This document shows, piece after piece, positions 24,790 to 38,118 of a stretch of 64,000 bases of DNA (the first letter of the stretch is position 1; every line of letters starts with the position of its first letter). The translations under genes were made by a program, and so were the position numbers. The notes under the pieces are model-generated. The model saw nothing but the letters and a program-made list of their open reading frames with translations, did no database searches and had not been told where the DNA came from. This DNA comes from Paecilomyces variotii (Eukaryota), in NCBI GenBank assembly GCA_004022145.1, contig RCNU01000005.1; one strand, 5' to 3'.

Positions 24790-26383
24790 TTAGACTTTCA
24801 TATCCAAGACACACCGGATACAGTCACCACTTTTCATGTGCTGGAATGCTGTATTGATAGTCCCCAGTGTTTCACGATGAGTTATGTATTCATCAACCCT
24901 CAGGTAGCCAGCGACGTAGTCATCGACAAGACTGGGTAGCTGAGACCGACCCTTGATACCACCGAATGCGCAACCCCTCCACACTCGCCCGGTCACAAGT
25001 TGAAATGCTATATAATAGGTTAACAATGCGACTATCCATACAGCTCACATAGGGAGCAAACTTACGCCTAGTCGAGATTTCCTGACCAGCTGCAGCAACT
25101 CCAATAATAATACTTTCGCCCCATCCCTTATGACAGGACTCTAGAGCAGCACGCATCACACCGACATTTCCGGTACAGTCAAAAGTATAATCACATCCCC
25201 CATCAGTCATCTCGATCAGTTGTTCCTGAATGGTCTTTCCCTCGAGCTTGGTAGGATTCACAAAATCTGTAGCACCAAACTTGCGCGCCCACTGTTCCTT
25301 ATCATCATTGACATCAACCACGATAATCTTACCAGCTTTATTTTTCACTGCACCTTCAATCACAGACAAACCGATACACCCAGCACCAAAAACGGCAATA
25401 TTAGATCCTTGCTCTACTTTGGCAGTAATCGTTGCAGCACCATATCCGGTCGTAATCCCACAGCCCAACAAACACGCACGATCAGTGGGTGCTTTGGTAG
25501 TAACAGCCACAACTGAGATATCAGCAACAACCGTATATTGAGAGAATGTCGAGGTTCCCATGTAGTGCAGGATATCTTTGCCTCGTGCTTTAAAGCGAGT
25601 TGTTCCGTCGGGCATCACACCTTTGCCCTGAGTGGCACGGATCTTCTGGCACAAGTTGGTCTTCCCCGACTTGCAGAACTTGCACTCACCACATTCCGGG
25701 GTACTGTTGATGATAAGTTGGCGTTTCTAGACAGGTGGGATGTGAAAAATAACTGACTAAAGCGCGATTACTTGATCACCAGGCTTGACATTAGTCACGC
25801 CCTCACCAACTGACTCAACGATACCTGAACCCTCGTGGCCCAGGATGACAGGGAAAGCTCCCTCTGGGTCCTTTCCAGAGAGAGTATAGGCATCTGTATT
25901 ATGTAACCAGCAGTGTTAACCAATATAATTCAAACCTCACGTTGAAACAAACAAGAATAAAAACTGGCTCAAATATAAACCACATGGAACAACGCACCGG
26001 TGTGACAGACACCCGTGTGGAGAATCTGAATGCGAACCTCATGGGCTTTGGGAGGGGCAACCTGGACATCCTCAATGGAAAATGGTTCGCCGGCAGCCCA
26101 TGCGATAGCAGCCTGATATTATCGGCCATCGTGTTAGAAAATAGGAAGCCACAATATCCAGAAGACATGCTACAGACGCCATTACCTTGCAAGTTATGGT
26201 CTATCATTTGACGTTAGCAAAATATCAAAGGAGCACATGGCACAGGAAAAGTCCATTTGTGGTGGTTGAGAATAGGCAAAGTGAAGTGCTCATCGTCCAG
26301 CACTATATGTGCCAAGCTTCAAGTATGTATTGGGAATAGAAAAATGGGAACAGGTAACTCACTTTACCAGCAGTACTAGCCAT
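24790..26383 (-). CDS. fldA: S-(hydroxymethyl)glutathione dehydrogenase / class III ADH (SFA1/fldA-like), multi-exon
   Basis: [20 protein letters not shown]...[17 protein letters not shown]...[52 protein letters not shown]; canonical introns. Confidence 0.95.
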
Positions 26384-27356
26384 AATGATTTTTGCTTTTG
26401 GGGTGACTATTGATGCGAGGTAGGTGATGAAACTTTGATTTGGATACAGATTTGACGGAGAGAGTAAACTTCCATTTGGGTTCGAAGTGATCGAACTTAT
26501 ATAGAATAGCTCCCTTGTGTCCGCTGTCATGATAAAGTGTTGTGACGACAGAAATGACGTCTACAATTGGAGAAGTGGAACATTGAACTGAGTCATCCAT
26601 GATAGATGGTTTAGAGGAGTTAGTTTTCGCGGAAGGAGGGGCCCGTGGGTCCTGTGGTCAATACCGACTCAGCTTTTCACCAAGACGAAACTTAGAGGTC
26701 AAGCCTAGAATCTATGCCTACTACATGACGATGTTGGTAAATCTATATTAGGTTCAGAATGGTGCTAGCTATTTTTGGCACTAGTATCGAGCCAATGATA
26801 TGCCCCCATCAGTGCACAAGCCATGTGTGTGCCAAGCAATTTACCATGTAACCTTATTTCATAAATGGTAACTTTCGTATCAACGAACAACTCCGTTATC
26901 AGAAGAGGAGAAAAAGAAAAAAAAGAAAAAAGCTCTAACTTAAAGCGGTCCCCGACTTTACTGGACCTGCTATGAGTAGGGAGGAGGATGGGGTAAACAA
27001 GCCCTACCCCGCTTATTATGCTTCTGTCGTGATGAAAGTGGAGATAAGAGGCTAACACAAATTTGTAAGCCAGATTACACTGTCCCTTCCCCCAAGCCAA
27101 CTCGAGAAAGAGCTTTAGACCAGTGGCAAGCTTGCTTGGCAAACTCAGTCAGATCAACACGTACTCTTCATATTTTCTCAACAATCACTGTAGACCGCTA
27201 GTTGGTAATGAGGAGTCGTGACGTCAGGAATGTTATTCATAAACCGGCAAGGTATTTGTAGTCCATGCCCGCCAGTAATTGAACTCTTTCGGGTGAGTGT
27301 AACTTCCATTTTGAAAGCTTTTCCTGCACGGCTCGTCAATATAAGGACCAAAAACG

Positions 27357-28610
27357 ATGTCAACTAAGGAAAAGGTCGTCATCATTGGCGGTGGGTGGGG
27401 TGGTTATCGACTGGGATATGGCATCGACCACAGAAAATACGATATTACCCTTATTGCGCCAGAGAACACGTCCGCGGTGACTCCCCTCCTCGCCAGCGCG
27501 GCTTGCGGATTGTTTGACCCCCGTCTAGCACATGAGCCCATCCGGCGGAAGGATTTTCATGCCCAATACATCAAGGCCTTCGTCGTCGACATTGACTTCA
27601 ACAGGCAGGCACTCATATGTCAGCCCGCGTTCGAAGAGCTGAAGGATGAGCGATTCGAAGTATCTTATGACCGAGTGATCCTCTCGCCTGGCTGTCGAAG
27701 CAATACCTTTGGCATCCCTGGGGTTGCGGAAAATGCCATTTTTGTCAAGAATGTGGCCAATGCAAACACTGTACGGAGTCGTCTGAATGAAGTCCTTGAG
27801 ATGGCTTCATTGCCGGGAACATCTGAAGCGCGCCAGAGGCAACTACTCCATATCGTTATTGTTGGGGGTGGCCCCACTGGGATCGAGGTGGCAGCGGAAT
27901 TGACAGACCTTTTTGAAGGAGATTTGGGCGTTTTATTCCCGCACCTGAGGGACATGACATCAGTTACGGTGATAGATGTCGCACCCCAGATTCTGGCACC
28001 ATTTGACCAGAAGTTATCAGAATATGCTTGCAGTGCACTGAAAACCAACAAGGTCAAGGTCAAGCTTAACTGCCACATTCTGAACGTTACAAAGGATACC
28101 ATAGAGACCAGGGAATCCGGGGTCACGGGCTACGGGATGCTCATCTGGGCCACCGGAAACAGATCAATACCCTTGGTCGACCAACTGCAGCTCAGGAAGA
28201 CTGAGAAAGGCCTTGTGCGGATCTTGACCGACGATCATCTCAATGTTTTCTCCCCAGATGGCAACGTGATACCTAACGTGTTTGCAATGGGCGATGCGGC
28301 CGACATTGAAGGCGGAACATTACCGACGACCGCCGAAGTTGCAATTCAAAAAGCTGATTATCTTATCAACCTTTTCAATTCTGGTGGAAAATATACTCGG
28401 CCATTTCAATATAAGCAGCGGTCGCTGGTAACATACACGGGTGCGTGGGACGGTGTGGTTCAAGGGAAGCGCGAGTACACGGGTTACGGTGCATGGCTGA
28501 GTTGGAGATCTGGCAACTTCTTCTGGACGCGGTCGTGGAGGAGAAGGATCCTGATGTGCTATGCGTGGTTTATGGACTGGTTGGATGGGAGAGAGATAAT
28601 TCGTAACTAG
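27357..28610 (+). CDS. Type II NADH dehydrogenase-like FAD oxidoreductase
   Basis: Intronless 417 aa; GGGWGG, TPLLAS, FGIPGV, GGGPTGIEVAAE, FAMGDAA and PTTAEVAIQKA motifs. Confidence 0.9.
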   Translation: MSTKEKVVIIGGGWGGYRLGYGIDHRKYDITLIAPENTSAVTPLLASAACGLFDPRLAHEPIRRKDFHAQYIKAFVVDIDFNRQALICQPAFEELKDERFEVSYDRVILSPGCRSNTFGIPGVAENAIFVKNVANANTVRSRLNEVLEMASLPGTSEARQRQLLHIVIVGGGPTGIEVAAELTDLFEGDLGVLFPHLRDMTSVTVIDVAPQILAPFDQKLSEYACSALKTNKVKVKLNCHILNVTKDTIETRESGVTGYGMLIWATGNRSIPLVDQLQLRKTEKGLVRILTDDHLNVFSPDGNVIPNVFAMGDAADIEGGTLPTTAEVAIQKADYLINLFNSGGKYTRPFQYKQRSLVTYTGAWDGVVQGKREYTGYGAWLSWRSGNFFWTRSWRRRILMCYAWFMDWLDGREIIRN

Positions 28611-36852: not shown

Positions 36853-37548
36853 TTTTGAGGGTGGTATGGAGACGATAGGTCAAAAAAGGGGGTGAACAGG
36901 AGTTTAACGTGCAAATATTGGACGTAGACAATTAAGGGACTGGAGATGACAAAGGCTCAATCGGTAGGTAGTGTAAATTATGTAGGTCAGAAGTAAAGAT
37001 CCTGTAGATCCTTATAAGGCTCATTCATACACCGGTTGCCAGGGTTTTCGGATGTTGTCGGATCATATCAGTTTATCTGAGGGAATGTGAGAACGGTTTG
37101 AGTGTGTAACGTCATCTGGCTGAAAAGGATTCATCATGACGCTGACTAGGCTAGTATGATGCGTACACTTGATTAGTACTCTATGACGCCGACTGGATAC
37201 ACTCCCTTGGCATGCTTCGTGGATCTTCGTGGACTGTGGATGATCAGAAGCATGATTTGAGCAACCAGCACGCAGGACAGTTACTTACTGCTGCTCTATC
37301 AGTAAGGTATTAGGTGACAAAACCAACGTAGCCTTAGTACTATAACTATAAGTGATACCGTTGTGCATTCATGGTGTTACTCTACGGTGAGTTCTACTCT
37401 AGTCATATGTAGCTTAATTCAGACGTTGAAAGAGCCAATAGCGCAGTGAGGTCGTTCCAGTCCAACCTGCACAGCCTAAACCCCATTACATTCATGGAAA
37501 AAGTGTAACTTTTTTGTCTCATTATCTATGGACTGCTAGATACATTTT

Positions 37549-38118
37549 TCAAGATGCCGCAAAACTGAAGCCTGCCTTCTGTGCGTTAAAGGTTGCGATA
37601 AGGTCCATAAGCGGCGGTGACAAAACATCGTACGTATCCAAACCAACTGCTTTGAACCTTGCCCGTACATCATCCATACCCTTGGGGTTGAACCCCTGCT
37701 CAATAATAGATGACACAAAGCCGGCAAACTGCGGCTCTTGCCATCCTTCCTCGTTTGAGAGCTCAACATGCACAAAATCCAGCCCCTTGAACGGATGCTC
37801 CTTTTCAATCCGGCCGTAAAGGTGCACACCACAATCCTTACAGGCATGGCGTTGTATCGCAGCTGATTCGTCGACGATAATGAGCTTGGATTCGTTGGAG
37901 GTGACCGAGAGATTTTCGCGTGGCACAACGCCAACGATGGAGAAGAGTGCACCGGATGGTTTCCAGCACTTGGAGCAGCCGCAGGCGTGGTTGTGGGCGA
38001 CATTGCTCTTCAGGGAGATTTCCACTTTGTTCGAAGAGCAGCGACAGTAAAGCTTTCCGCCGCTAAAGTTCGGACGTCCTTTGATGATTCCATTGTCAAT
38101 GAGTGGATGGAGCGACAT
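37549..38118 (-). CDS. gfa: Glutathione-dependent formaldehyde-activating enzyme (S-(hydroxymethyl)glutathione synthase, Gfa)
   Basis: [37 protein letters not shown] and [14 protein letters not shown]; intronless. Confidence 0.95.

Follow-up and report, generated by a model that had tools for sequence, protein, structure and literature searches.

The closest described system to the locus studied here is the ssf (Starship formaldehyde) cluster, for which the accessible text of PMC11623301 (Urquhart, Gluck-Thaler and Vogan 2024) describes seven genes, ssfA, ssfB, ssfC, ssfX, ssfD, ssfE and ssfF, together with their transfer and knockouts. According to that text, Chrysaor is the element that holds all seven ssf genes in Paecilomyces variotii and Aspergillus fumigatus; a complete copy and a truncated one are reported from P. 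variotii, both in resistant strains, and in Chrysaor carriers the cluster raises formaldehyde tolerance and is induced by formaldehyde. The knockout of ssfB has the largest single-gene effect and equals the deletion of ssfA-F, and ssfD and ssfF are redundant with host copies. The SsfB protein is printed there as a disulfide oxidoreductase of unclear role, with glutathione reduction as a suggestion. Clustering of such genes in Paecilomyces had been noted already in 2014 (PMC3886963), and Chrysaor is listed again in the accessible part of 10.1101/2025.02.28.640899. Here we analyse a stretch of 64,000 nucleotides of P. variotii DNA (the window; positions 124001-188000 of contig C45 in a 30.1-Mb assembly), which contains seven genes of this kind at 24790-38118, a span bounded by the stop of the first gene and the start of the last one. 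Publications already cover the cluster, its carrier and element type, its transfer and its knockouts, and another instance of this well-studied eukaryotic horizontal transfer of an adaptive trait therefore adds little. What is new here is the reading of SsfB as a member of the type II NADH dehydrogenase (NDH-2) family.

The preliminary description of this DNA had proposed the ssf cluster or a variant of it, and our comparison identifies the locus as the ssf cluster itself. Table S5 of PMC11623301 gives the genes on scaffold228 of A. bombycis as geneA(-), B(+), C(-), X(+), D(+), E(-) and F(-), and all seven genes of the window agree with the published cluster in order, strand and spacing, with no difference in gene content. 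The ends of ssfB, ssfX, ssfD, ssfE and ssfF are collinear with those on scaffold228 at a constant offset of 24480-24485 bp. The NDH-2-like gene thus corresponds to ssfB, and the gene for the cupin to ssfX. Both clusters also show a like pattern of host paralogues, present for A, C, D, E and F, with no close one for B and X. Our assignments of SsfB (NDH-2) and SsfX (StrC-type cupin) are more specific than the labels in PMC11623301. We place at about 0.92 the probability that this is the ssf cluster on a Chrysaor-type Starship of the Galactica family that came from Aspergillus, inserted into the AAA-HAD-UPRTase gene of its host and later lost its distal end; the figure refers to cluster identity and mobile origin, and not to mechanism.

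The seven neighbouring genes are present as first described, in frames of 380, 417, 434, 200, 286, 353 and 189 residues that contain no internal stops in our gene models. Intron positions in these models are our own choice, at GT-AG splice sites bar one GC-AG and without use of RNA, and family support comes from NCBIfam and from Pfam on 46 open reading frames (ORFs) of the window, a scan that short exons lie outside of. ssfA (26383-24790, minus strand; 380 residues, five GT-AG introns) encodes an S-(hydroxymethyl)glutathione dehydrogenase of the class III alcohol dehydrogenase/formaldehyde dehydrogenase (ADH/FDH) type, with the motifs GVCHTD and GHEG and the structural-zinc cysteine motif; the first NCBIfam match of its main exon is the class III formaldehyde dehydrogenase TIGR02818 (E 1.8e-101). 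ssfD (33390-34529, plus strand; 286 residues) encodes an S-formylglutathione hydrolase with GHSMGG, D230 and H265, and TIGR02821 is the top match of its first exon (E 7.7e-21). Both genes remain below the whole-protein NCBIfam cut-offs because they were scanned as single exons. ssfF (38118-37549, minus strand; 189 residues) encodes Gfa, the glutathione-dependent formaldehyde-activating enzyme, and exceeds both curated cut-offs, NF003829 and TIGR02820. SsfF, SsfA and SsfD form the established glutathione route from formaldehyde to formate, which is thus complete in the cluster, as had been claimed.

The remaining dehydrogenases are ssfE (36852-35607, minus strand; 353 residues), a classical zinc alcohol dehydrogenase by gene model and NCBIfam, and ssfC (30813-29284, minus strand; 434 residues, four introns, one of them GC-AG), a zinc-dependent, FdhA-like MDR dehydrogenase. 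Scanned singly, the exons of ssfC reach 75 and 36 bits against TIGR02819 (FdhA), where the cut-off is 637, and its PDB matches are weak, with a Thermus-type alcohol dehydrogenase entry outscoring FdhA and formaldehyde dismutase. The earlier label, a glutathione-independent FDH-like enzyme, therefore reflects no more than a distant resemblance to Pseudomonas FdhA or formaldehyde dismutase, and the substrate is putative. In agreement with the preliminary description, no 2-hydroxyacid/formate-dehydrogenase-family match at E<=1e-15 occurs in C45:1-327000 (20 candidates scored), and no transcription-factor domain is found by Pfam among the 46 window ORFs, short exons not being scanned.

ssfB (27357-28610, plus strand) is a single exon encoding a predicted NDH-2-family flavoprotein (Pyr_redox_2) of 417 residues without an N-terminal presequence. 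Sequence and predicted fold together assign SsfB to the NDH-2 family, the label given to the second gene from the outset, and support it better than the published label of disulfide oxidoreductase. The 20 PDB sequences matched at E<=1e-4 comprise 13 of NDH-2 type, headed by Ndi1 (1.5e-48), six FSP1/AIFM2 proteins and one NADH oxidase, and no glutathione reductase. The predicted model of SsfB (pLDDT 90.9) retrieves NDH-2 structures first in Foldseek, and its comparison with 48,161 representatives gives structural Z scores of 48.6, 44.2, 43.0 and 42.2 for four NDH-2 structures over 379-406 residues. The two C-terminal helices of the model, at 377-390 and 394-410, carry six and five aromatic residues. 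An acidic residue, D207, follows the second Rossmann strand, which we take as a mark of NADH preference. The NDH-2 motifs GxGxxG, YD, GxGxxGxE and GD, as given in the accessible part of PMC5299459, are all present and are kept in 113-120 of 120 homologues. Databases already give some homologues the automatic name 'NADH:ubiquinone reductase (non-electrogenic)'.

Compared with the NDH-2 enzymes of yeast (Ndi1), Plasmodium (NDH2) and bacteria, SsfB thus shares the whole-length fold, the aromatic C-terminal helices and the four motifs. In contrast, it lacks a presequence, has AExAxQ in place of AQxAxQ, contains three conserved cysteines and is only about 30% identical to Ndi1. None of the words NADH, quinone, NDH or cupin occurs in the main text of PMC11623301, and a literature search that included the accessible parts of PMC12256816 and PMC10104507 found no NDH-2 reading of SsfB tied to the ssfB phenotype.

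On this basis, we propose how the cluster could work. From what is known of the families and from the published knockouts, formaldehyde forms an adduct with glutathione, assisted by SsfF; SsfA oxidises the adduct to S-formylglutathione, making one NADH, and SsfD splits the product into formate and glutathione. These three steps duplicate host genes and raise capacity. SsfB, the product of a gene that the host lacks, would re-oxidise the cytosolic NADH made by formaldehyde oxidation, its electrons probably passing to membrane quinone by way of the aromatic C-terminal helices, and would keep NAD+ available for SsfA and for the host formate dehydrogenase. Such a supply of NAD+ would explain why losing ssfB alone is as severe as losing all of the cluster. 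A further NADH sink might be provided by SsfE, and perhaps by SsfC, through the reduction or dismutation of formaldehyde, a weaker suggestion that draws on what is known of these families. For SsfX, a small cupin lyase or isomerase acting on a formaldehyde adduct is a doubtful guess. The head-to-head arrangement of ssfB with the NADH-producing ssfA fits NADH re-oxidation, as does the report in the accessible text of PMC11623301 that only ssfA and ssfB were retained in fragmentary clusters of A. flavus. A loose precedent may be seen in Pichia, where the accessible part of PMC9103059 gives two NADH per methanol dissimilated and an external NDH-2 that is up in one pathway mutant.

We therefore lean, at somewhat better than even odds, towards SsfB as a member of a presequence-less fungal NDH-2 subfamily, marked by AExAxQ and three cysteines, that re-oxidises cytosolic NADH, so that the supply of NAD+, and not glutathione, would be limiting. 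If true, the cluster would be a self-balancing module in which an oxidising arm (F, A and D) is paired with sinks for NADH (B, and perhaps also E and C), and mould formaldehyde tolerance would be limited by redox balance. A limit of this kind would matter for formaldehyde bioremediation and for yeasts engineered to use methanol or formaldehyde. The function of SsfB is a question flagged by the authors of PMC11623301 in its accessible text.

Several observations weigh against this role. The quinone motif of SsfB, AEVAIQ (AExAxQ), lies outside the three main forms, AQxAxQ, AQxAxR and APxAxQ, given in the accessible part of PMC5299459, where about 70% of NDH-2 family members have a recognised quinone motif; among the 120 homologues, the A, A and Q are kept in 119-120, and the second position is E in 114 and Q in five. 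C50, C88 and C113 are kept in 114-117 of the 120, a near-invariance that may point to chemistry with thiols or a metal. Four other loci of the NDH-2 family exist in the host, and a simple NADH bottleneck is thus not self-evident. The hydrophobic moments of the C-terminal helices (0.22 and 0.36) are not above those of other helices, and membrane binding by SsfB is therefore itself only inferred.

Two other roles for SsfB within the same cluster have to be considered. The suggestion in the accessible text of PMC11623301, a thiol-disulfide reductase that would maintain glutathione in its reduced form, would suit a pathway that depends on glutathione, and it could draw on the Pfam Pyr_redox_2 match, the three near-invariant cysteines and the non-canonical AExAxQ; we nevertheless regard it as quite improbable. 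The glutathione reductase HMM scores 24.6 bits on SsfB against a cut-off of 480, and the fold match to yeast glutathione reductase Glr1 (Z 24.0 over 322 residues) ends near residue 385, whereas eukaryotic and mycobacterial NDH-2 structures superpose on residues 1-3 to 417. The pattern CxxC or CxxxxC, which we take to define the redox-active pair of thioredoxin and glutathione reductases, is absent from SsfB and from 111 of the 120 homologues. Furthermore, the position of the redox cysteine of NADH peroxidase and CoA-disulfide reductase appears to correspond to P43 of SsfB, a proline in 116 of the 120 homologues. The other role is that of an FSP1/AIFM2-like quinone reductase whose benefit is antioxidant and not the supply of NAD+: it would keep membrane ubiquinol reduced, or reduce a toxic quinone or a formaldehyde-derived electrophile. 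FSP1 is the next fold match (Z 33.2) and accounts for the six PDB sequences mentioned above, and the variant quinone motif and the lack of a presequence would be in keeping with it (109 of the 120 homologues have at most 20 residues before the FAD motif; the other 11 have a second Met there). Respiratory NDH-2 enzymes are much closer, however, both in sequence (E 1.5e-48 versus 7e-7) and in fold (Z 42-49 versus 33), and the head-to-head position beside ssfA and the ssfA-ssfB pair kept in A. flavus also speak for NADH re-oxidation by an NDH-2-type SsfB, leaving the FSP1-like role unlikely.

The cluster duplicates core genes of its host, as first proposed. Separate host copies are found on contig C1 for ssfA (89% over the main exon), ssfC (74% over one exon) and ssfF (73%), on contig C5 for ssfE (75%) and on contig C56 for ssfD (61-79% by exon). 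The host homologues of SsfB, at the four other NDH-2-family loci (29-44% over matched stretches), and those of SsfX (43-46%) are distant. A matching pattern of host paralogues is reported in the accessible text of PMC11623301.

The cluster proteins are 95.8-99.5% identical to records from Aspergillus section Flavi. SsfB matches the A. pseudotamarii record at 415/417 residues and that of A. bombycis at 414/417, SsfX matches A. bombycis at 199/200, and SsfF matches the same two species at 183/189 and 181/189, respectively. The interrupted host gene is 55-68% identical to Aspergillus among the records listed. For three host genes, namely the interrupted gene, that of the unlinked Gfa and one for a serine palmitoyltransferase in the flank, all named members shown of the respective protein clusters are from Paecilomyces, and the unlinked host Gfa is identical to P. 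variotii records. In a tree of Gfa (13 rows), the copy of the host is placed with Paecilomyces, and that of the ssf cluster joins records from Aspergillus (support 100/100). The SsfB tree (31 rows) has a starred clade of eight rows with support 99/95, in which the other seven are from Aspergillus section Flavi, and a starred clade of 14 rows with records from P. variotii No. 5, Penicillium, Trichoderma and Aspergillus; the one host NDH-2 included, of two host frames, lies far outside the ssf clade on a long branch. The accessible text of PMC11623301 likewise infers Aspergillus as the donor.

The carrier is a 134-kb Starship on the minus strand, whose distal part occupies 22192..64000 of the window and which continues to about C45:280470; the ssf cluster lies at its far end, away from the captain. 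DUF3435 is matched only twice in the whole genome, by two exons of a single gene, the captain, at C45:279915-276329 (minus strand), 116 kb from the cluster and aimed at it. It is the element's first gene and points into the cargo, and its exons are open. Its three large exons are 100% identical to an A. fumigatus record, which equals the P. variotii captain model at 1092/1092 residues; an A. parasiticus record is 93.8% identical overall and 98-99% over one exon. A. parasiticus is not named as a Chrysaor carrier in the accessible text of PMC11623301. Among the 47 ORFs scanned between captain and cluster are genes for a DUF3723 protein (E 7e-106) and a ferric reductase (FAD_binding_8, Ferric_reduct). 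Such genes are known as Starship accessory genes.

The element interrupts a host AAA-HAD-UPRTase gene, identified by Pfam. Its N-terminal half (AAA and HAD) lies at 20974..22191 on the plus strand and its UPRTase half at C45:280471-281243, 134 kb away, and the gene is whole, with 665-666 residues, in other P. variotii records. The junction on the captain side has the motif A(N)TAGT, a target listed for the Galactica-family Lamia elements in the accessible part of PMC12153272; Galactica elements insert at dispersed sites according to that of PMC11162782. A supplement search for a related Af293 captain found nothing. The other end is truncated at 22191/22192, and a pair of intact termini with a direct repeat is not found. 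No signature of repeat-induced point mutation (RIP) is seen, as the composite index stays below zero in all 5-kb bins between 10 kb and 327 kb.

Nearly the same DNA occurs in other sequencing runs. Fourteen of the 24 runs listed, from seven studies, contain a share of 0.91-1.00 of the words that make up window 21500-31400; they carry four organism labels, with one run unlabelled, and the best of them may be the source of this assembly. Run X4 has 22192-40900 on one contig with four differences in 18,709 bp, and runs X12 and X13 are matched in pieces with 0-2 differences per listed piece, 24 further pieces not being shown; these three runs give no cover on the host gene half. Run X5, with seven differences and two gaps, has the element elsewhere together with an uninterrupted host allele, in which the contig continues through the host gene. 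All four compared runs extend 4-7 kb past 22192 and share the first 30 letters that are unlike the window, and a few host letters are missing at the 22191/22192 junction; the present copy has therefore lost its distal end plus a few host letters. Runs X12 and X13 also have one or two extra contigs each, 90-95% alike, with a loose end at the ssfA stop (24788 onward), pointing to another ssfA-like locus in these two samples. RNA runs hold 0.05-0.37 of the words of 21500-31400, values that have no bearing on expression. The near-identity across organism labels and the presence of a captain bear out the earlier proposal that the cluster is horizontally mobile.

The alternative that the seven genes are the host's own orthologues, vertically inherited and natively clustered, finds no support and has next to no probability left. 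A vertical single-copy origin is refuted by the empty-site allele and by the second copies of A, C, D, E and F on C1, C56 and C5, and the two Gfa copies part in their tree, the host one with Paecilomyces and that of the cluster with Aspergillus. Points of caution on the mobile origin concern its direction and its carrier: both trees are unrooted, with rows taken from identity searches and without verified Aspergillus core orthologues, so that the direction of transfer is supported and not proven; the organism labels of the matching runs are coded; and the name 'Chrysaor/Galactica' is inferred indirectly, from the captain and the A(N)TAGT junction. The element is nonetheless very probably Chrysaor, since its captain equals the A. 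fumigatus record at 1092/1092 residues. With Chrysaor it shares the P. variotii host, the seven ssf genes, a captain common with A. fumigatus and near-identical DNA under several labels. A different ssf Starship (Prometheus, Mithridate or Typhon), or a captain-free remnant like those of P. formosus and A. pseudotamarii, seems very unlikely. Prometheus is reported from one P. variotii strain, next to captain-free clusters, in the accessible text of PMC11623301, an A. pseudotamarii record shares 99.5% identity with SsfB, and the present copy is truncated. The captain, however, is present in cis with open exons, and no RIP is seen here, whereas the P. variotii Prometheus is described in that text as heavily RIP-mutated. 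SsfB falls in the A. nomius/bombycis/flavus clade, which the same text links to Chrysaor, and is only 87.5-93% identical to two Penicillium rubens types, whose assignment to Typhon or Mithridate is a guess.

The cupin of the cluster, noted in the preliminary description as well, is ssfX (31383-31985, plus strand; 200 residues), assigned by Pfam and of the StrC/3ES1 type. Its best profile matches are StrC (PDB 8X0U/8X0V; E 1e-52) and 3ES1 (E 5e-51), which are also its best fold matches with a TM score of about 0.73. Both are about 32% identical to SsfX, and nothing links their entries to formaldehyde. A literature search by these entry codes gave nothing relevant, and in the Atlas SsfX falls only among unnamed cupin clusters. 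A protein-like frame with stops lies at about 32600-32960 on the minus strand, between ssfX and ssfD, where no NCBIfam family matches; the published cluster has equal spacing between these two genes and likewise lists no gene there. A promoter motif seemingly common to ssfA, ssfB and ssfF among the top 8-mers was considered and rejected: the windows of A and B overlap and one site was counted twice, leaving two of five independent regions, and after correction for 1,462-2,809 tests no k-mer clearly stands out.

The surroundings of the Starship contain a split 5S rRNA gene. Its 3' half (nt 55-94) lies at 6973..7012 on the minus strand and nt 1-54 at C45:281383-281330, the gene being split between nt 54 and 55 into exactly complementary halves; it has nine differences from an intact copy, all transitions. 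Two intact 5S genes are found 7 and 12 kb further right. The halves enclose 150 kb, which without the Starship leaves a captain-less segment of 16 kb that contains the interrupted AAA-HAD-UPRTase gene and may represent an older, perhaps 5S-targeted insertion. Such a nested site, where the Starship occupies a host gene that itself lies within an older segment inserted at 5S, would reflect successive layers of cargo capture at one locus; unlike the features shared with Chrysaor, this nesting is not found in the accessible text of PMC11623301. A Starship that targets the split 5S gene was rejected, as it is the two UPRTase gene halves, and not those of the 5S gene, that flank the insert with the captain. 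At 8051-11860, within the 16-kb segment, a ZIP zinc transporter gene and an HRXXH (Aspf2/Pra1-like) gene form a divergent pair, as described in a literature abstract. This is the only HRXXH-family match in the genome, and the zincophore locus of the host may thus be captured cargo.

Within the Starship, a degenerate Tc5/DDE_1 DNA transposon with terminal inverted repeats (22286..24083, plus strand; Pfam HTH_Tnp_Tc5 and DDE_1), presumably of the Fot1/pogo type, is covered in all four sequencing runs compared. A GC-rich block at 41000-46000 (58-65% versus about 45%) contains long ORFs without a Pfam match. Other cargo includes a TPP enzyme, an FMN oxidoreductase, a heme-oxygenase-like ORF, a beta-mannosyltransferase, a lactonase and a DUF2786/DUF7168 protein, located at 51300-52931 and 61565-62957 of the window and at L024:513-1226, L024:3878-5293, L029:4391-5224 and L032:1758-3152.

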